Shown here in pieces: positions 7,396 to 41,983 of a DNA stretch of 58,913 nt. Under the pieces are notes generated by a model. That model made no database searches, was not told where the DNA came from, and was given only the letters and a program-made list of their open reading frames with translations. The position numbers and the translations under genes were made by a program. This stretch comes from a bacterium (GTDB taxonomy: Bacteria; CLD3; SB21): positions 1 through 58,913 of the forward strand of contig JABWCP010000019.1 of assembly GCA_013360215.1 (NCBI GenBank), read 5' to 3'. Within the stretch, counting starts at the first letter, position 1. Every line of letters begins with the position of its first letter.

Positions 7396-8079
7396 TCATG
7401 ATCTAGAATTAACTGATTCATAACCATTTTTGATAATTGGCGTTTGATTGTTTGAGTTTTTTAAAGTTTCAAAGTCATTTTGAATTTGCCTTAATATATC
7501 CCGTATGTTAGCAGTCTGAATTTTCGTCGGTTTTCCGAATGTCAATGACGAACTAAACGGTACGATGAGATTATCACCTTTAGGCATTGCTTTTCCCAAA
7601 CCCGTCATGAATACAGGCACGTATGTTATGTCGGGTCGTTGTGAAAGAACAAATCCGATACCCGGCTTTAAGGGCTGTTCCTTTTCCGGTTCACCTCTTG
7701 TCCCCTCGGGGAAAATTATCAATGAATACCCCCTTTCTAAGGTTCTTATCATCTTAATGATTGGGTCATTATCCGGATTCTCTAAGTCTCGTTTCCTTTG
7801 TATGAGAAGTGAATTGATAAAAAAGTTACTCAATTTTTCTTGGAATTTCGTTTTACCGAAATGATCCTGAGCCGCCACCGGTTTAATTTTGTGAATTATT
7901 TTTCTTGGAACCGAGGCCAATATACTCATGGTATCCAAATGGCTGTTATGATTAGCAACGATGATAAATTGCTCTTCGCTAAGCAAAAACTTTGAATCAT
8001 CAAGTTTTACGCCAACGATTAATTTCAAAAACCAACGAATCAAAAAGCTGTAAATAAGCTGGAGTACGATTTTTTGCAT
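7396..8079 (-). CDS. Lysophospholipid acyltransferase (PlsC family)
   Basis: ANHNSHLD (NHxxxxD) and FPEGTR motifs. Confidence 0.92.
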   Translation of the reverse strand: MQKIVLQLIYSFLIRWFLKLIVGVKLDDSKFLLSEEQFIIVANHNSHLDTMSILASVPRKIIHKIKPVAAQDHFGKTKFQEKLSNFFINSLLIQRKRDLENPDNDPIIKMIRTLERGYSLIIFPEGTRGEPEKEQPLKPGIGFVLSQRPDITYVPVFMTGLGKAMPKGDNLIVPFSSSLTFGKPTKIQTANIRDILRQIQNDFETLKNSNNQTPIIKNGYESVNSRS

Positions 8080-9033
8080 TTAGTATGCGATATAATAAAC
8101 GAGATGAAAAAATGTTGGAGCCGTATAGGCTAATGAGTCAATACGATCTAATACGCCGCCATGACCAGGAATTGCCGAACCCGTATCCTTTACACCCACG
8201 TCGCGCTTAATTGACGACATTACGATGTCTCCAATGAAACCTGAAAGCGCAATCATAAAACTAACTAACAAAACCTGATAGTTGTTTAATGGAGTCAAAA
8301 ATGCGAGTAAATATCCTATACTTGTCGTACAAATGAGCCCGCCAACTAAACCTTCCCACGTTTTATTAGGACTGACTTTGGGAATGATTTTGTATTTGCC
8401 TAACAGCTTACCCCACGTAAACTGCATAACATCATTTATTTCGGTCAGAAAAACCAGAAACAATAATAACCCTCTGCCGCCAGAGTTAAAACCTTCTATT
8501 TCTGGAAGTGAAAGCAAATAAGCCATGTGACTAAGTCCGAATACTGTAAGCATCAGTATCCATTGAAGCACCGACATCGATTTGGTAATTCCGGCGGTAT
8601 CACCTTTAAGAACGAGACGAAGCGGGAGCAAAAGAAACATGACTACAGGAATGAAAATAATGAATGCTCCATACCAACCGATATACGCTAAGTAGTATTG
8701 AATCGGAATAGACACGAATGCCCAAAAAATCGCCCTTCGGTCAGACTGACGAAATCCAACCAAAGAGTATAGTTCCCTAAATGCCACAAATGACAAGAAA
8801 GCAATTGCTACGTATGAAATGTTAGTGTTAAAAATGGTAGCTCCAATGAATACAGAGGCCATGATCCACCACGATTTCGTCCTGGTTTTCAACTCTTGTA
8901 GGTTGGCATTTGGATTTATTTTTCCGATTAAAAAAAACAAAAGTGAAGCAAAAGTTAAAATGCCAAAAATAAGCGCAACAACGATGAGTAATTCGTTGTT
9001 GTCTATGAATTGTAAGTGAAATACTTCTTTCAT
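8080..9033 (-). CDS. Phosphatidate cytidylyltransferase (YnbB/CdsA family)
   Basis: SPNKTWEG and KRDVGVKDTGSAIPGHGGVLDRIDSL signatures; multiple TM helices. Confidence 0.92.
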   Translation of the reverse strand: MKEVFHLQFIDNNELLIVVALIFGILTFASLLFFLIGKINPNANLQELKTRTKSWWIMASVFIGATIFNTNISYVAIAFLSFVAFRELYSLVGFRQSDRRAIFWAFVSIPIQYYLAYIGWYGAFIIFIPVVMFLLLPLRLVLKGDTAGITKSMSVLQWILMLTVFGLSHMAYLLSLPEIEGFNSGGRGLLLFLVFLTEINDVMQFTWGKLLGKYKIIPKVSPNKTWEGLVGGLICTTSIGYLLAFLTPLNNYQVLLVSFMIALSGFIGDIVMSSIKRDVGVKDTGSAIPGHGGVLDRIDSLAYTAPTFFHLVYYIAY

Positions 9034-9632
9034 GTTGCTTTCAGCGCTTTGTTAATTCTGATGGCTGTACTTATTACAAGCAATATAATGATTACTGAAA
9101 AAAACCAATTCGAATACAGTTTAAAGTCTATGCTTAGAAATGAAAATACGCCGTATATTCCCATTACAAAGGCCCTGTCACTTTTACCCATAGGGCCATC
9201 ATATCTCCGCTCCCCAGACAACGCTTTTCCAATAAGTCCTGCAAATTCATTAATGATACTAAGGCTCATAAATAGGACAACTAAATAAATGATCTGTTTT
9301 TCAAAAACCAATAATGGAAAATAAATAAACACATCTGAAATCACGTCGCCAAGCTCGTTTAATACTTCCCCTTCTTTTGTTTGCTGGTTATAAGTTCTAG
9401 CCATCATGCCGTCAAGGGCATTAAGAGCCATCCTAACCAAAAGCCCAAAAGGTAATGCAAGAAACAAAAACCGATAAGCATCAGCAAACCAAAAAGCAAT
9501 TCCAATCAGCAACGAAAGGAAAATGGATGACCAAGTTATTTGGTTGGCTGTTACTCCGATTTTGTGAAGACCGACCAGAATCGGTGATAGGAGTTTCTGA
9601 AAACCGGGTTTTATTTTATATATTGAGATCAT
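9030..9632 (-). CDS. CDP-alcohol phosphatidyltransferase (YnbA-like)
   Basis: ALDGMMAR...GEVLNELGDVISD motif; GPMGKSDRAF; 4-bp overlap with next gene. Confidence 0.9.
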   Translation of the reverse strand: MISIYKIKPGFQKLLSPILVGLHKIGVTANQITWSSIFLSLLIGIAFWFADAYRFLFLALPFGLLVRMALNALDGMMARTYNQQTKEGEVLNELGDVISDVFIYFPLLVFEKQIIYLVVLFMSLSIINEFAGLIGKALSGERRYDGPMGKSDRAFVMGIYGVFSFLSIDFKLYSNWFFSVIIILLVISTAIRINKALKAT

Positions 9633-9756
9633 TTTTTCTCTTTATGGTCAAAAATTTTTACATATATATATATTTATATGTATTTTTAACTGTAGTAAAA
9701 ACTTATCACTTCATAAGATCATGATCGGCGTGAGAGAATATACCGTTGTGACAGAA

Positions 9757-9785
9757 AACGTACATAATCTGTTTCAGGATGTCAA
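9757..9785 (-). promoter_or_regulatory. Candidate sigma70 promoter of the lipid trio
   Basis: TTGACA, 17 bp, TACGTT on minus strand. Confidence 0.45.
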
Positions 9786-9876
9786 CCGGAGGTTTGATGT
9801 TTTTTCGACGCGCTGTGTGAGTGAGATATAAGATAGAAATTAAATACGGTGTGTTTTGACTAGAGACCATCAGTAA

Positions 9877-10050
9877 TTAAGATTCATACGATACTTCGCA
9901 CACGAAACGGTTTCTTTTGAGATTTTGAAGGTATTCGAATACTTCTTTGCGACGCAGATCGGCATGGCGCTCCCGCAGCTTGGCCAGTACGGGACATTCG
10001 CGGCAAGCCTTCCCTTTTTTCTTATAGTTTTTGCAGCAATCGGGTTTCAT
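9877..10050 (-). CDS. 57-aa Cys-rich protein with CC-x9-CxxC motif (not in ORF track)
   Basis: Manual translation MKPDCCKNYKKKGKACRECPVLAKLRERHADLRRKEVFEYLQNLKRNRFVCEVSYES; starts 10 bp after upstream stop with a GAGGGA RBS. Confidence 0.75.
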   Translation of the reverse strand: MKPDCCKNYKKKGKACRECPVLAKLRERHADLRRKEVFEYLQNLKRNRFVCEVSYES

Positions 10051-10060
10051 CGTTGATCCC

Positions 10061-10393
10061 TCAGTTATAATACGTCGTGCGTTGGCTTGTCAAACTCAGT
10101 ACCGTATCCGCTTTTTCCAATAAATCCGTCAGTTTAGAAAGCTCCGAACTCGTGAGCGCCAAATGCCATGCCCTGGAAGAAGTTTCGATGAAAATATTTT
10201 TCTCGCGCGGATTGGGTTCCGATTTCAGAGCCCTCCGCTCACGAATAATACGTTCTCTGAAATCGGAAAATTCCCGCCGTGTAAAATTAGCCAGCGCCGT
10301 ACCAAAACCGACCTGTATGCGTTCGCACGTTTCGCAGACGGAGACGTAGCCCAACTCGTTTTGTTGGACGATGCGGTGATGACAATCAGCCAT
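10061..10393 (-). CDS. Small CxxC protein, DUF6686-like
   Basis: GYVSVCETCERIQVGFG...NFTRREF pattern recalled from DUF6686 proteins; operon context. Confidence 0.7.
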   Translation of the reverse strand: MADCHHRIVQQNELGYVSVCETCERIQVGFGTALANFTRREFSDFRERIIRERRALKSEPNPREKNIFIETSSRAWHLALTSSELSKLTDLLEKADTVLSLTSQRTTYYN

Positions 10394-10419
10394 TCGGTAA
10401 ATCCGTCATTTTAGTGATA

Positions 10420-10542
10420 CTAGTTGCACACCCATACCGTGACCATGGGCACAATGAGCCACAATACGCCTTTGATTAAAAAAAACAAAAAACCGATGAT
10501 ACCGAGTTTTTTGGCCCACGGCCAGCGATTCGTAAAATTCAT
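10420..10542 (-). CDS. 40-aa membrane peptide (not in ORF track)
   Basis: Manual translation MNFTNRWPWAKKLGIIGFLFFLIKGVLWLIVPMVTVWVCN; ATGA overlap with upstream stop indicates translational coupling. Confidence 0.75.
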   Translation of the reverse strand: MNFTNRWPWAKKLGIIGFLFFLIKGVLWLIVPMVTVWVCN

Positions 10543-10871
10543 CGCGCGATCACCGCGTAGGTTTTAAATTTGGACTCCATAGGTGCGGCTTCTCCGCGCG
10601 CTTTGGCAGCACGTACATCGGCAAATCCGCGCTTGTGGCCTTCGATGAATTCCGGCGATTGGGTCCAGGTATCAAACGCTTCCTTGCTATCCCAATGACT
10701 CACAATCAGATACGGCTCGCCCGGTTGATCGGGTTTGAGAACCTGCATATCTACAAATCCCGGCATGCGGTCAATGGCATGCGCGCGTGAACTGAAAAGT
10801 TCTTCAAACCGTTCGCGATAAGTATCGTTGCAGGTGATATAATTGATCGCCACAAAACGATGCGTACTCAT
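10539..10871 (-). CDS. ABM-fold haem-degrading monooxygenase, IsdG/MhuD-like
   Basis: MPGF and WDSKEAFDTW motifs; N10/W69/H79 match the IsdG Asn-Trp-His triad. Confidence 0.8.
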   Translation of the reverse strand: MSTHRFVAINYITCNDTYRERFEELFSSRAHAIDRMPGFVDMQVLKPDQPGEPYLIVSHWDSKEAFDTWTQSPEFIEGHKRGFADVRAAKARGEAAPMESKFKTYAVIAR

Positions 10872-11170
10872 TATTTTTTCTCCGGTTTTTTATAGCTGGT
10901 AAGATATTTTAAAATCCGTTCTTTTTGATGATCGGAAATTTTAGCACGCGTCTGCATTTGATCCAGATGCGCTTCCCATGCTTCATCGGAAAAATCCGAT
11001 GGTACAAAAAGGCTGTGGCAACTGCCGCAATGCTGCACATACATCGCGCGCCCTTCGTTCAAAACCGTAAGTTCGGCGGGATCACTCGTTGTAGCGGCGC
11101 TCGGTACATAGAGCGCCGGTGCACAACTAGGCATAAGCAGCAGCGAAAGACAAAAAAAGTATTTTTTCAT
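10871..11170 (-). CDS. Monohaem cytochrome c, probable lipoprotein
   Basis: CGSCH haem-binding motif; candidate distal Met in WEAHLDQM; signal peptide ending LLMPS-C. Confidence 0.85.
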   Translation of the reverse strand: MKKYFFCLSLLLMPSCAPALYVPSAATTSDPAELTVLNEGRAMYVQHCGSCHSLFVPSDFSDEAWEAHLDQMQTRAKISDHQKERILKYLTSYKKPEKK

Positions 11171-11178
11171 GGCTGTGC

Positions 11179-11970
11179 TCAGAATATGTAAGAAAAGATC
11201 AGACGCGTTTCGAGGCGCTCATGTTCATCCAATACCAAACCGTTTTTGGTGGCACCTTTTAGCGCTTTAATCTGCGGCAGGATAGTCAGATTGACCCAAA
11301 AATTTTCCATCGTGTAGCTCAGTGTAGGACCCATAAATAGCGCGGAATGTTCCCACTTGCCTTCGACCACTTCATTGTGATTGCGGGCTTCAATACCCAA
11401 GTACAATCCGTTGCGAACGCGGTAACTATAGCCGAGATCCAATTCGTAAACCGTTTCTTTTTCGTTTTCGATCTCACCGTGTTCTGCTTCTTTTTCAAAT
11501 TCCAGTTCACCGACAAGGTTGAGTGCCAGAATGGAATTCCCGATACGCTTATCAAAGATCAACTTGCCTTCGATTTCGATCTCATTGCGTCCGATACCGT
11601 ATTCGCCATACAATGCAAATCCTACCGGATCGGCCACGGCGTCAAATACTTTGTATTTCCATTCATTAGAAAAACTCAGTTCGGTTGCATTTTCTATTGT
11701 CGAGTCATTGGTCTGAGCCGCCGATGTTTTTGCGTTGATATAAAACGCCGTTTGAAGATTTTTAGCGAAGCCGAGTTCATATTCGATGCGATTTTCAAAT
11801 GCTCTGTAAAATTTTTCGCGGCCCCATTTGAAGGTGACCCAAGGTTCGACTTCACGTTGGCCGACATTGAGCACATTACTTTGGTACGTGTAGTTAAAAA
11901 TACGATCCTGAGCAGTTAATGCATTAAATCCACACCATGTCAAAATCAGGCCCCAAAAAAACGTTTTCAT
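11179..11970 (-). CDS. Exported protein, probable outer-membrane beta-barrel (DUF6662-like)
   Basis: Signal peptide; alternating hydrophobic strands; C-terminal RLIFSYIF barrel signature. Confidence 0.75.
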   Translation of the reverse strand: MKTFFWGLILTWCGFNALTAQDRIFNYTYQSNVLNVGQREVEPWVTFKWGREKFYRAFENRIEYELGFAKNLQTAFYINAKTSAAQTNDSTIENATELSFSNEWKYKVFDAVADPVGFALYGEYGIGRNEIEIEGKLIFDKRIGNSILALNLVGELEFEKEAEHGEIENEKETVYELDLGYSYRVRNGLYLGIEARNHNEVVEGKWEHSALFMGPTLSYTMENFWVNLTILPQIKALKGATKNGLVLDEHERLETRLIFSYIF

Positions 11971-12010
11971 AAAACAATCCTCGGTTATTATTTAATTGGT
12001 TACAATTGAA

Positions 12011-12166
12011 ATTGAGATTCAGTCTCAATATTGGAAATAAAGAAAACAAAATTTATTTTCATATTATCTAATAATTGAGAACAGTTCTCAATGATAATTG
12101 TCATGTTTTTATGTAATTATAATGATTATTTATTTTATTTAATTGAAATTGAGACTTAGTATCAAT
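12011..12166. promoter_or_regulatory. Three 19-bp Fur-like inverted repeats
   Basis: ATTGAGATTCAGTCTCAAT (12011-12029), ATTGAGAACAGTTCTCAAT (12074-12092), ATTGAGACTTAGTATCAAT (12148-12166). Confidence 0.75.
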
Positions 12167-12176
12167 TGATGGTTAA

Positions 12177-12205
12177 TATATATTCATTATTGATTATTTT
12201 GTCAA
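12177..12205 (-). promoter_or_regulatory. Candidate sigma70 promoter of the iron/haem operon
   Basis: TTGACA (12205-12200), 17 bp, TATATA; immediately upstream of the Fur-like boxes. Confidence 0.55.
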
Positions 12206-12535
12206 GAATTATTTTTCAATAACTGATACTTACGAAGTTACTGAGAACCTCATCGTCTATAGTTCTTCCAAAATCTATGGTTTTGGTATATACTCGTATA
12301 ATCCCTTATTCACAAAAGGGCTCGTATTAAACAAAATTGCGTTATCTTACTTTTAAATAAAAAGCATAATAGCCACTGTATTAAGTTGCAAACTCGCGCT
12401 ACATCAGAAGAAGAAATAGACTTTCAAATAAACGCCGACCTTAAAACATTAAGAAAAAATTTGGAAGTAAATACGTCAGGGAGGATAATCAAAAGAAGGA
12501 GAAAAATTTATTCGAAATGGAATAACGATCTTACA

Positions 12536-14248
12536 CTATTCCGCTTCTTTGGCACGTTTAACAAATTCGGGATAAAGTGTGTTAAGGCATTCGGGGCAGA
12601 CACTGTGGGTAAACTCCGCATCGGTATGTTTCTGAAGATACGTTTCGATTTGGCTCCAAAATCCGTGGTCGTCGCGCACTTTTTTACAGTTGGCACAAAT
12701 AGGAAACATGCCGCGTAACTCTTTGACATTGTGCAGCGCTTCTTCGAGGTCACTGTTTATTTTCGTCAATTCGGCATTTTTGGCATTCAGCAATTCTTCC
12801 GATTGACGTTTGACGCGATAGCGTTGCCACAGTAACACCAAAACCACGATTAGCGCCAAAAACCCGCCGATCAGCGAATGGCGTACAATTTTACTCTGAC
12901 TGATTTCAAGCGATTTGATCGTACTATCACGCTGTAGAAGTGCGATCTGCTGATCCTTACGCTTGGAATCGTAGAGCAACTGAAGCTCGGCTGTTTTACG
13001 GTTTGCTTCTACACTCTGTAAAGAATCTTTGATCGCGATGTAACCCTTGTACCAAGTCAATGCCTGCGGCAAATACCCCATCGCTTCATAGATTTCCGAA
13101 AACACAAGGCGTACATCACGAATACGATTGCGATTACCCGATGCAAGGTAAATCTGATGCCCCATTCCTGCGTATTGCAAGGCCATATCGTACATTCTGA
13201 GTTTTTTATAATTTTGAGCCAAGCTGACATACGCATTACCTTCGGCGGTTAGATCTTTCACAAACTTTGCCATTTCGAGTGATTGGCGCAGGTATGTCGC
13301 CGCCTCCGCATAATTTCCTTTTCGATTGTGTACGTCGCCAAGGCTTACCAATGTCCACGCCACGCCGGATTTATTATCCAGCTGCTTATACAGCCCGTAT
13401 GCTTTCCGATATAAATGTAAAGCGCTATCCAAGCGTTCCTGCTTTTCATAAACAGAACCGATATTTAGAAAACAAAGTGCCGTACCGGATTGGGAACCTA
13501 TCTTTTCCTGTATTTCCAACGACTTCTGATAATACTCTAACGCTTCAACATATTTGGATTGCTCCAAAAAAACATTACCGAGATTGATATACGATGTGCC
13601 TAGGCTTTTTTGGTCGCCGGCTTCTTGGGCAATTTTGAGCGATTTGAAATAATATTCCAAAGCCTCCTCATGATCGCCCATTTCTACATACACGTTGCCG
13701 ATATTGTTGTATGCGACAGACTGACTTTGTAAATCTGCTCTTCCCTGATACACACCCAACATGTTTTCGTAATAACCCAACGCTTCACGGTATTTACCGC
13801 CGATCATGGCAATGCCGGCAAGACTATTGTAAGCACGCGACAAACCGACCGTATCATTATTATTCATCGCCATTTTCAATGCATCGCCATAGAGACGCTT
13901 GGCGTCATCTACCCGGCCTCGCTGCTCAAAAACGTAACCGAGATAATTGACGGCCTTGACTTCACCAAATTTGTATTTAAAAACACGGCTGAGTTCTTCG
14001 GATTTGCGGATATAATATTCGGCCGAGTCGAGATCCACTTCCAGATATTGGAATGCCAGATCGTGCATCAGATTGACTTTACCGGAATCATACGCCACTC
14101 CCTGAATGGCGGTTTTTAAAACTTCAATGCCCTCTTGCTGAGTCCATCCGTCGTTATAAACCATACCGGCACAAAAAACCGATGACAAAATAACCCAACG
14201 GCGGATGTGTCGAAACCAATGATTACGGAAAGAAAACAAGTAGCGCAT
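12536..14248 (-). CDS. Membrane-anchored TPR sensor with C-terminal CxxC...HxxCxxC domain
   Basis: Signal peptide; repeated YNNIGNVY/ALEYY TPR units; TM helix; coiled coil; PICANCKKVRDD...THSVCPEC tail. Confidence 0.88.
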   Translation of the reverse strand: MRYLFSFRNHWFRHIRRWVILSSVFCAGMVYNDGWTQQEGIEVLKTAIQGVAYDSGKVNLMHDLAFQYLEVDLDSAEYYIRKSEELSRVFKYKFGEVKAVNYLGYVFEQRGRVDDAKRLYGDALKMAMNNNDTVGLSRAYNSLAGIAMIGGKYREALGYYENMLGVYQGRADLQSQSVAYNNIGNVYVEMGDHEEALEYYFKSLKIAQEAGDQKSLGTSYINLGNVFLEQSKYVEALEYYQKSLEIQEKIGSQSGTALCFLNIGSVYEKQERLDSALHLYRKAYGLYKQLDNKSGVAWTLVSLGDVHNRKGNYAEAATYLRQSLEMAKFVKDLTAEGNAYVSLAQNYKKLRMYDMALQYAGMGHQIYLASGNRNRIRDVRLVFSEIYEAMGYLPQALTWYKGYIAIKDSLQSVEANRKTAELQLLYDSKRKDQQIALLQRDSTIKSLEISQSKIVRHSLIGGFLALIVVLVLLWQRYRVKRQSEELLNAKNAELTKINSDLEEALHNVKELRGMFPICANCKKVRDDHGFWSQIETYLQKHTDAEFTHSVCPECLNTLYPEFVKRAKEAE

Positions 14249-41407: not shown

Positions 41408-41983
41408 ATGGAACAACACCACGATACTATCGTGGGGGAGATTTGGAAACAATTGAGGGAAAATCCGACGTATTTTATCAGTAACATGGGTCGGGTAAAA
41501 AGTTTTAACTATGATAAAGTCAATGGCCGTATTCTGAAACCGCGTATCTCCGGTAAAGGCCATTATGTAGTCAGCTTCCGCAAGTACAACATCAAACAGA
41601 GCGTTTACATTCATCATCTCGTCGCGCGCTATTTTTTGCCGCCACCATCACCCGATCAGAAATTAGTTTTTCACATCAACGGCGATCATACCAATAATCA
41701 AGCGACCAACTTGATGTGGGGCACGCACAAAGATCATCTATTACGCTCTTCACAAAAAAATCCGCGCGTGCATTATTATTTCTTTGCAAATCGGGCATCG
41801 CGCTACGATACTAGCAAAATAACAGCCGCCGACGCCGAAGATATTCGCAAAATGCTTAAAAACGGCGTAACCGGACGTCGTATTGCCAAAATGTACGGTA
41901 TCAGCGAGATGCAGGTAACGCGCATTCGTCGTTTTGAAAATTGGAATCCCGATAAAAAGAATGTTCAACCTTTGGCATCGTAA
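41408..41983 (+). CDS. NUMOD4-HNH endonuclease-like protein with C-terminal HTH
   Basis: EIWK...YFISNMGRVKS (NUMOD4); HHLVARYFL...HINGDHTNNQATNLMW (HNH); IAKMYGISEMQVTRIR (HTH). Confidence 0.88.
   Translation: MEQHHDTIVGEIWKQLRENPTYFISNMGRVKSFNYDKVNGRILKPRISGKGHYVVSFRKYNIKQSVYIHHLVARYFLPPPSPDQKLVFHINGDHTNNQATNLMWGTHKDHLLRSSQKNPRVHYYFFANRASRYDTSKITAADAEDIRKMLKNGVTGRRIAKMYGISEMQVTRIRRFENWNPDKKNVQPLAS

Follow-up and report, generated by a model that had tools for sequence, protein, structure and literature searches.

A conserved outer-membrane barrel and lipoprotein cytochrome c gene pair in a candidate iron-regulated operon

Outer-membrane barrels that partner c-type cytochromes are known from two kinds of system. 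The fused cytochrome-porins of the Cyc2 type, found in iron oxidisers, combine a monohaem c-type cytochrome with an outer-membrane barrel as a redox link to iron at the envelope, and in the MtrAB/PCC systems an outer-membrane barrel is encoded next to a periplasm-derived c-type cytochrome. A gene pair that shares these traits is described here from a contig of 58,913 nt (58.9 kb) of a bacterium of the CLD3 lineage SB21 (GenBank assembly GCA_013360215.1, JABWCP010000019.1), which was analysed over its whole length and is called the window below. The pair, encoding a barrel of the DUF6662 family and a lipoprotein cytochrome c, leads a six-gene operon behind three palindromic boxes, and the same two genes stay together in almost all of the related loci.

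Compared with Cyc2, from general knowledge rather than by sequence or fold, the pair is split into two genes, its barrel has 12 strands, its cytochrome is a lipoprotein modelled on the periplasmic face, and its setting is one of Fur-type boxes and Feo and TonB neighbours, not of respiration. In MtrAB/PCC, also compared from general knowledge, multihaem cytochromes are threaded through large barrels and serve respiration, whereas the pair has a single haem, a small barrel and a plausible iron-starvation context. A full-text literature search, with subscription journals outside its coverage, returned no description of such a barrel-cytochrome module and no paper naming DUF6662 or DUF6686, the family of another of the six products. 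The pair is apparently undescribed; the kinds to which it would belong, porin-cytochrome pairs and Fur-regulated iron operons, are already known.

The six open reading frames (ORFs) of the operon are, in order of transcription:

11179-11970, minus strand: outer-membrane barrel (DUF6662 family), 263 aa
10871-11170, minus strand: lipoprotein cytochrome c, 99 aa
10539-10871, minus strand: ABM protein, 110 aa
10420-10542, minus strand: membrane peptide, 40 aa
10061-10393, minus strand: DUF6686 protein, 110 aa
9877-10050, minus strand: Cys-rich mini-protein, 57 aa

The barrel and cytochrome genes are separated by 8 bp (11171-11178), the cytochrome and ABM genes overlap by 1 bp (10871) and the ABM and peptide genes by 4 bp (10539-10542), and gaps of 26 bp (10394-10419) and 10 bp (10051-10060) precede the DUF6686 and mini-protein genes. 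These junctions agree exactly with those of a first-pass annotation, made from the sequence alone, which had proposed that the six genes form one iron and haem unit.

The conserved barrel-cytochrome pair

A word-indexed protein search with the barrel gave 833 homologues at E<=0.001, many of which carry PF20367. An alignment of 41 barrel homologues was used to scan species-representative genomes, giving 337 pattern matches of which 300 were confirmed. All counts per locus given here refer to the best 80 of these 300 confirmed barrel loci and thus to the nearer relatives only. Most of the 80 are from Bacteroidota (Bacteroidales, Prolixibacteraceae, Sphingobacteriales, Chitinophagales, Flavobacterium), and three are labelled Ignavibacteria.

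In a tblastn search of these loci with the proteins of the window, 79 of the 80 had the cytochrome as the next gene after the barrel. In the sole exception, L033, the sequence ends about 100 nt past the barrel gene. The spacing between the two genes is at most 30 nt in 74 of the 79 loci and the genes overlap in 47, the start codons being estimated. The other four genes are far less constant: ABM genes were found in three loci (L002, L062 and L066), the 40-aa peptide in three, adjoining the ABM gene in L002 only, the mini-protein in one (L001, directly after the cytochrome) and DUF6686 in none, and no locus holds all six genes together. Co-conservation had been set beforehand as the test of the proposed six-gene unit, and it was found for the barrel and cytochrome only. 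As these are the only linked genes in the 80 loci, the conserved entity is a two-gene module, and the six-gene operon of the window is a lineage-specific, local assembly.

The barrel has a signal peptide and reaches the gathering score of Pfam DUF6662 (29.1 bits, cut-off 27) over residues 168-239 only. Its AF2 model is a 12-stranded barrel (pLDDT 92.1, pTM 0.84), which bears out the initial assignment as a DUF6662-like outer-membrane barrel. The best PDB matches of this model found with Foldseek were FapF (E 1.7e-8, TM 0.67), the COG4313 channel 4rl8 (E 3.3e-7) and NanC. The FapF and COG4313 channels (PDB 5o65/5o67 and 4rl8; E 1.7e-8 to 3.3e-7, TM 0.59-0.70) share with the barrel the 12 strands and an N-terminal segment before the first strand, but their sequence identity to it is only 8-13% and they have no cytochrome partner. 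Their substrates are amyloid subunits and small hydrophobic compounds, respectively. In the barrel the N-terminal pre-barrel segment (residues 21-38) is conserved, the stretch DRxFxYTYQ (22-30) being nearly invariant. Conserved Glu residues occupy alternate strand positions (40, 42, 63, 65, 103, 123, 132, 134, 155, 172 and 194), as do Lys and Arg, a pattern that would suit a charged lumen.

The cytochrome contains a CGSCH motif and matches DHC with 28.7 bits. All 40 aligned sequences have C16, the lipid-bearing Cys, C48-x2-C51-H52, W65 and M72. The CxxCH motif, a distal Met and the lipobox Cys16 are thus all present, as expected of a class I-like lipoprotein cytochrome c and as first annotated. 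M72 would be the second haem ligand, making this a putative His/Met cytochrome. Among solved structures the closest matches are no more than the N-terminal halves of dihaem DHC cytochromes (E 9.5e-7).

A complex of the two proteins (barrel 21-263, cytochrome 16-99) was modelled with haem included. Three runs gave ipSAE values of 0.67, 0.65 and 0.55 (median 0.65), compared with 0.02 for the best control. In calibration, 116 of 157 solved complexes reached a score of 0.65, as did 2 of 215 mismatched pairs; these counts hold only roughly here, as custom alignments and haem were used. Between runs at least 66% of the contacts agree, and the cytochrome is modelled with a pLDDT of at least 84. On the barrel side the modelled interface comprises the N-terminal segment (22-38), the periplasmic turns at 70, 110-115, 142-147 and 220, and the C-terminus (262); on the cytochrome side it comprises residues 45-56, spanning CxxCH. 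The cytochrome is therefore predicted to dock with its haem-motif edge on the periplasmic face of the barrel, an orientation that, in the model, fits a periplasm-facing lipoprotein.

Boxes, iron genes and a haem-oxygenase-like protein

Three 19-bp palindromes of the form ATTGAGA-N5-TCTCAAT were located by a repeat finder 40-196 bp upstream of the operon. They are listed with their scores against a palindromic position weight matrix (PWM) built from 15 of the upstream sites of the related loci.

12011-12029, no strand assigned: box 1, ATTGAGATTCAGTCTCAAT, centre 50 nt upstream of the barrel ATG, PWM 20.3
12074-12092, no strand assigned: box 2, ATTGAGAACAGTTCTCAAT, a perfect 9-1-9 palindrome, centre 113 nt upstream, PWM 20.5
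12148-12166, no strand assigned: box 3, ATTGAGACTTAGTATCAAT, one mismatch to ATTGAGA-N5-TCTCAAT, centre 187 nt upstream of the barrel ATG, PWM 19.4

At up to one mismatch the pattern has three matches in the window, compared with 0.02 expected, and three were reached in none of 100 shuffles; at up to two mismatches the window holds no site beyond the three boxes. The best promoter-like site on the minus strand (TTGAGA-17-GATAAT, 12091..12063, 10 of 12 matches) is overlapped by box 2 in its first hexamer and part of its spacer.

The Fur box of E. coli was tried and rejected as a description of these sites, its consensus GATAATGATAATCATTATC having no match in the window at up to three mismatches. 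An AT-rich stretch between boxes 2 and 3 (12113-12133; AATTATAATGATTATTTAT, plus strand, 12115) resembles classical Fur hexamer repeats; its PWM score is only 6.8 and it has more than three mismatches to the E. coli consensus.

A closer likeness is to the Fur box of Riemerella anatipestifer. A study of that organism (PMC5609570) gives the predicted box as ATTTAGAATTATTCTAAAT and describes electrophoretic mobility shift assays in which Fur binds promoter fragments with putative boxes. By hand count each box of the window is identical to this sequence at 14 of 19 positions. Both are 19-bp palindromes within about 200 bp of a start codon, and they differ in that the R. anatipestifer box has T/A at the symmetric positions 4 and 16, where all three window boxes have G/C. 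The G/C form is also found in the two closest relatives, L001 and L002, while a box of the canonical R. anatipestifer type precedes orthologous barrel genes in other Bacteroidota.

Sites with up to three mismatches to ATTKAGAANNNTTCTMAAT number 29 in the 24,000 nt lying within 300 nt upstream of the barrel genes of the 80 loci, compared with 51 in the other 808,546 nt. Such Fur-box-like sites are thus 19-fold enriched upstream of the barrel gene, and they are present in 24 of the 80 loci. The consensus of the PWM is ATTTAGAATTATTCTAAAT, identical to the published R. anatipestifer box, and the window boxes, at 19.4-20.5, score well above the 99th percentile of the background (12.1). Of the earlier claim of three Fur-like boxes, then, the palindromes are real and have the layout of a Bacteroidota Fur box, and the E. 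coli consensus is not what they follow. Judged by their sequence, the window boxes are most likely a local form of the Bacteroidota Fur box, and iron control of the operon is plausible.

The genes found around the pair in other genomes include genes of iron uptake. FeoB is encoded upstream on the same strand in six loci (L015, L039, L044, L062, L066 and L080), and in four of the six a Fur-family gene and feoA lead the operon. The Fur-box-like motif heads the fur-feoA-feoB operons that contain the pair in L015, L039, L066 and L080. A TonB receptor adjoins the pair in four loci, being upstream in L003 and L057, and in L057 the motif lies 98 nt before the receptor gene. PepSY_TM-like genes and FeS_assembly_P genes are present in four loci each. 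In 26 loci the pair has, by the criteria of the analysis, no same-strand operon mates.

Two of these clusters, L066:132-10762 and L080:2549-10611, are very long same-strand iron operons with a Fur-box-like site before the fur gene. The order in L066 is fur, feoA, feoB, CbiX-like chelatase, PepSY_TM-like, barrel, cytochrome, ABM, TonB receptor, HmuY, a gene for an unknown protein, a 51-aa peptide and FeS_assembly_P. L062 has the same downstream half, and L080 is a variant with a LuxR-type response regulator. A conserved protein of 237-251 aa, which matches no Pfam or NCBIfam family, is encoded between the genes for HmuY and the small peptide in L062 (6529-7239) and L066 (9439-10191).

It had been noted that the operon came without a TonB receptor or ABC transporter. 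This is true of the window, where no further iron-uptake genes are found among the other genes. Elsewhere the pair sits within ordinary Feo and TonB/HmuY clusters, and it is therefore an add-on and not a self-contained pathway.

The third gene of the operon encodes an ABM-domain protein (PF03992, 64.8 bits, cut-off 23.1). Its PDB matches are TT1380 (2.4e-23), MhuD (6e-13), HmoB (1e-10) and IsdG/IsdI (1e-4). N10, W69 and H79, which we take to be the catalytic positions of IsdG-family haem oxygenases, are found at these places in the translation and are invariant in four of four orthologues. In alignments MhuD has its W66 and H75 opposite W69 and H79, and TT1380, the closest solved relative, which has no named function, has an Asn opposite N10. 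The protein shares its fold, the Asn/Trp/His positions and significant sequence matches with IsdG/IsdI, MhuD, HmoB and HmuQ. In two of its three related loci (L062 and L066) the gene directly precedes those for a TonB receptor and HmuY, adjoining haem-receptor genes as IsdG-type enzymes do, whereas the window itself has no haem receptor. The first assignment to the IsdG family of haem oxygenases thus agrees with the fold, the triad and the structural matches, and stops short of the curated families, as the protein falls below all of their cut-offs (HmuQ, the best NCBIfam model, 49.7 against 130, PRK13315 32.9 against 119, IsdG 14.7 against 156 bits). On this sequence evidence it is probably a haem-degrading monooxygenase of the IsdG/MhuD/HmuQ type.

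The gene order, the boxes, the protein families, the linkage of barrel to cytochrome and the neighbours elsewhere are observed. They would fit a Fur-repressed outer-membrane module for iron entry or redox chemistry with lineage-specific add-ons, a reading to which we give an even chance. A Fur-family repressor would bind the three palindromes, one of which overlaps the promoter-like site, and under iron shortage the six genes would be transcribed together. The first gene would supply a 12-stranded outer-membrane channel with conserved Glu and Lys on one strand face, and the second a periplasmic monohaem cytochrome c (His/Met) held by a lipid anchor, whose CxxCH edge would lie against the turns and the N-terminal segment of the barrel as in the model. 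Iron entering or bound in the channel would encounter the haem on its way out into the periplasm and there have its redox state set for uptake across the inner membrane, a step that in relatives would fall to FeoAB from the same operon. The third gene would provide a cytoplasmic IsdG/MhuD-type enzyme freeing iron from haem, and genes 4-6 would be lineage-specific accessories. Inferred within this scheme are the binding of Fur, the formation of the complex and, most of all, the substrate of the redox step and its direction. The original idea of an iron-starvation module thus keeps its plausible iron control, its haem-degrading-like ABM protein and the iron genes beside the pair, and loses the six-gene unit and the FhuF-type reduction discussed below.

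A narrower version, which we put forward tentatively, is that Feo-type iron uptake in Bacteroidota and Ignavibacteriota has in this pair its missing, dedicated partner at the outer membrane. Barrel and cytochrome would act as a split porin-cytochrome: a 12-stranded channel lined with glutamates, with a haem at its periplasmic mouth that fixes the redox state of incoming iron. According to lineage the pair would be switched by Fur or by hemerythrin and a LuxR-type regulator as a sensor of oxygen or iron.

Several points weigh against assigning the pair to iron uptake. Genes for fur, feo or TonB receptors are not found in the window, and tblastn of the neighbours seen in related loci (Fur, FeoA/B, PepSY_TM, cytochrome c peroxidase, hemerythrin, LuxR, TonB receptor, HmuY) against it gave no match at E<=1e-3. 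The enrichment of boxes, by which 26 of the 80 barrel upstream regions exceed the 99th background percentile compared with 6% of 286 control upstream regions, is partly circular, as the PWM was seeded with 15 of those sites, and in 54 of the 80 loci the barrel has no strong box directly before it. The complex exists as a model only. Nor did a search of longer proteins with the cytochrome profile reveal a fusion of barrel and cytochrome: its six weak matches were all cbb3-type or dihaem, and this is weak evidence. Finally, His/Met c-type cytochromes are usually of high potential, which would favour Fe(II) oxidation over Fe(III) reduction, and the cytochrome of the pair may well oxidise iron rather than reduce it.

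To these must be added the neighbours themselves, as the commonest are not iron transporters. In 30-33 of the 80 loci a hemerythrin-domain protein and a LuxR-type regulator are encoded upstream. The former, of about 240 aa, is weakly RIC/YtfE-like (51.6 bits on the RIC model, cut-off 204.7), RIC being an Fe-S repair protein. The latter, of about 188 aa with a C-terminal GerE/LuxR domain, is encoded on the same strand, with the hemerythrin gene, directly upstream of the pair. Loci of this type are L005, L011, L014, L016, L021-L025 and about 20 more, examples of the genes being L073:738-1457 and L063:5288-5854. The two proteins may act as a switch for the pair that senses oxygen or iron.

A di-haem cytochrome c peroxidase is encoded next to the pair in three loci, before the barrel in L026 and L043 (Flavobacterium), where the Fur-box-like motif also precedes the peroxidase gene, and downstream in L016. 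A DUF6265 protein is encoded in six Flavobacterium-type loci. Thioredoxin and peroxiredoxin genes are found upstream in L011 and L016 (Prolixibacteraceae), where genes for a disulfide-oxidoreductase, a 4Fe-4S ferredoxin, AhpC/TSA, thioredoxin and DUF302 (L011:375-4545, L016:3-4519) come in a row before hemerythrin, LuxR, barrel and cytochrome. The Fur-family protein encoded beside feoAB is matched equally by the PerR model (75.0 bits) and the Fur model (75.1 bits), below the cut-off of both.

Given the peroxidase, hemerythrin and thioredoxin/peroxiredoxin neighbours, a role in redox stress fits these loci as well. The pair would then be a periplasmic redox-stress module in which the cytochrome feeds peroxidases or similar enzymes and the barrel serves that chemistry, the boxes would bind a PerR-like member of the Fur family, and the nearby iron genes would be there because iron control and peroxide control are generally coupled. 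This is the main rival to an iron module, and the equal PerR and Fur scores would suit it, but we judge it unlikely. The motif that the boxes match comes from Fur-regulated iron-uptake genes of R. anatipestifer (PMC5609570), and in the related loci it heads feoAB operons and a TonB receptor gene. The operon of the window adds an enzyme of the haem-degrading type and no peroxidase. Moreover, an electron donor for peroxidases needs no dedicated barrel, yet the barrel is the partner of the cytochrome in all but one of the loci.

The small tail genes and the surroundings of the operon

The 40-aa ORF encodes a single-helix membrane peptide with the core GFxFFLIKGxLWLxxP. In the related loci its homologues lie directly after the ABM gene in L002 and farther down the operon in L062 and L066, each time before the FeS_assembly_P gene, the homologue in L066 being the 51-aa peptide. 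As 15 columns are invariant among the four sequences, the membrane peptide named in the first-pass annotation is a real, conserved peptide that recurs in the iron clusters L002, L062 and L066. Neither this ORF nor the 57-aa ORF has a Pfam family, even at E<=10.

The protein first described by its CxxC motif is a DUF6686 protein (Pfam score 39.9 bits), with C4, H5, H6, C20 and C23 near its N-terminus, the last two forming the motif. Bacteroidota clusters of DUF6686 are present in the Atlas, and the word-indexed search returned only a 99% identical copy (one match among six candidates). A single-sequence AF2 model (pLDDT 78.6) consists of two beta-sheet-plus-helix repeats. It has no fold match in the PDB at E<=0.001, and PUR-alpha-like repeats at E about 0.02 are a mere lead.

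The mini-protein carries the motif CC-x2-Y-x6-C-x2-CP followed by a basic helix. In its translation C5, C6, C16 and C19 give the CC-x9-C-x2-C spacing, just as had been read from the sequence. A search of 1.84 billion representatives gave eight sequences at E<=0.001: the query, five small homologues and two long repeat proteins that match through Cys-rich repeats. C5, C6, Y9, C16, C19 and P20 are invariant in six of six aligned mini-proteins. The mini-protein matches no Pfam or NCBIfam family, and the Atlas gave no lead (best score 0.89, unnamed clusters).

A relation to the 2Fe-2S ferric reductase FhuF had been suggested for it. The FhuF_C motif does share the four Cys of CC...C-x2-CP and a Tyr after CC, but its spacer, as quoted in the first-pass annotation, has 10 residues and that of the mini-protein nine, and the mini-protein is free-standing at 57 aa. 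The window mini-protein has no match to FhuF_C at E<=10, the best homologue, P0133, reaches 13 bits (E 0.095, cut-off 20.5), and the exhaustive search found no long FhuF-like protein matching the mini-protein at its C-terminus. The link to FhuF is therefore not supported, the likeness lying solely in the Cys spacing. The peptide, the DUF6686 protein and the mini-protein are lineage-specific accessories with no function assigned.

These results bear directly on the version first proposed, in which the six genes form a fixed, self-contained iron and haem pathway with the mini-protein as an FhuF-type 2Fe-2S ferric reductase. The tight joining of all six ORFs, the four Cys kept in every aligned mini-protein and the sub-threshold FhuF_C match of one homologue speak for it. 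We nevertheless consider it very improbable, since the four tail genes are so rarely found with the pair, the adjacent peptide in one locus only, and since they do not move as a set: in L001, the nearest relative, the mini-protein stands directly behind the cytochrome with no ABM gene, and L002 has the ABM and peptide genes without DUF6686 and the mini-protein. The FhuF_C and exhaustive searches with the mini-protein argue against it too.

Around the operon the window holds ordinary chromosomal genes, among them those for EF-G, S7, S12, the glycine-cleavage system and aconitase. A search of Rfam over 9500-12700 gave just two sub-threshold chance matches. A terminator scan found none after the last operon gene, and three sites overall compared with 3.4 expected.

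A 565-bp AT-rich spacer separates the operon from the gene directly upstream on the same strand (12536-14248, minus strand). This encodes a 570-aa TPR protein that is partly like the Porphyromonas sensor kinase FimS (142.9 bits, cut-off 600). The likeness is confined to the TPR region, a kinase domain was not found with Pfam or NCBIfam, and the translation has a C-terminal tail rich in Cys and His (CANC...H...CPEC). On the other side, 7396-9632 (minus strand), directly downstream of the operon, encodes an acyltransferase, a CdsA-type cytidylyltransferase and a CDP-alcohol phosphatidyltransferase. The last scores best on the NCBIfam model for archaetidylinositol-phosphate synthase (73.4 bits, cut-off 180), and the three genes may form a cluster for inositol-phospholipid synthesis. 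A free-standing homing-endonuclease-like gene (HNH_3 and NUMOD4; 41408-41983, plus strand) lies between two peptidase genes.

The pair compared with porin-cytochromes

The resemblance to Cyc2 raises the question of whether the pair belongs to energy metabolism, as a split porin-cytochrome for respiratory Fe(II) oxidation or extracellular electron transfer and not for iron nutrition. An outer-membrane barrel with a monohaem cytochrome c, haem predicted to dock at the pore and, from general knowledge, the likely high potential of a His/Met cytochrome would all be expected of such a conduit. Its Fur-type boxes and feoAB, TonB and HmuY neighbours would not, nor would a 12-stranded barrel whose cytochrome sits, in the model, outside it on the periplasmic side. 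The pair is also widespread in ordinary heterotrophic Bacteroidota such as Flavobacterium, and the operon of the window has no further cytochromes. A respiratory conduit is accordingly an explanation that we find hard to credit.

Least probable of all is the uptake and oxidation of a small hydrophobic or aromatic compound, with a COG4313-like channel and the ABM protein as a cofactor-less monooxygenase acting on the imported compound: the fold match to 4rl8 and, from general knowledge, the many non-haem monooxygenases of the ABM family would allow it, but the ABM gene accompanies the pair in so few loci, its closest functionally named relatives are haem-degrading enzymes, the conserved strand-face residues are charged and the genomic context is related to iron.

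An outer-membrane module for nutrient iron would fall in a part of iron uptake that has received little attention. The crossing of the outer membrane by ferrous or freshly reduced iron, before FeoB, is poorly defined, and to our knowledge nearly all attention in work on iron in Bacteroidota has gone to TonB-dependent receptors. The pair recurs downstream of fur-feoAB or next to haem receptors, with the Fur box of the phylum ahead of it; with this placement it is a concrete candidate for the outer-membrane step that can be tested genetically. As the pair is present in cultured Flavobacterium species (L026, L053), knock-outs and iron-limitation transcriptomics are feasible. If the proposal is true, the porin-cytochrome principle would extend from respiration to nutrient iron.

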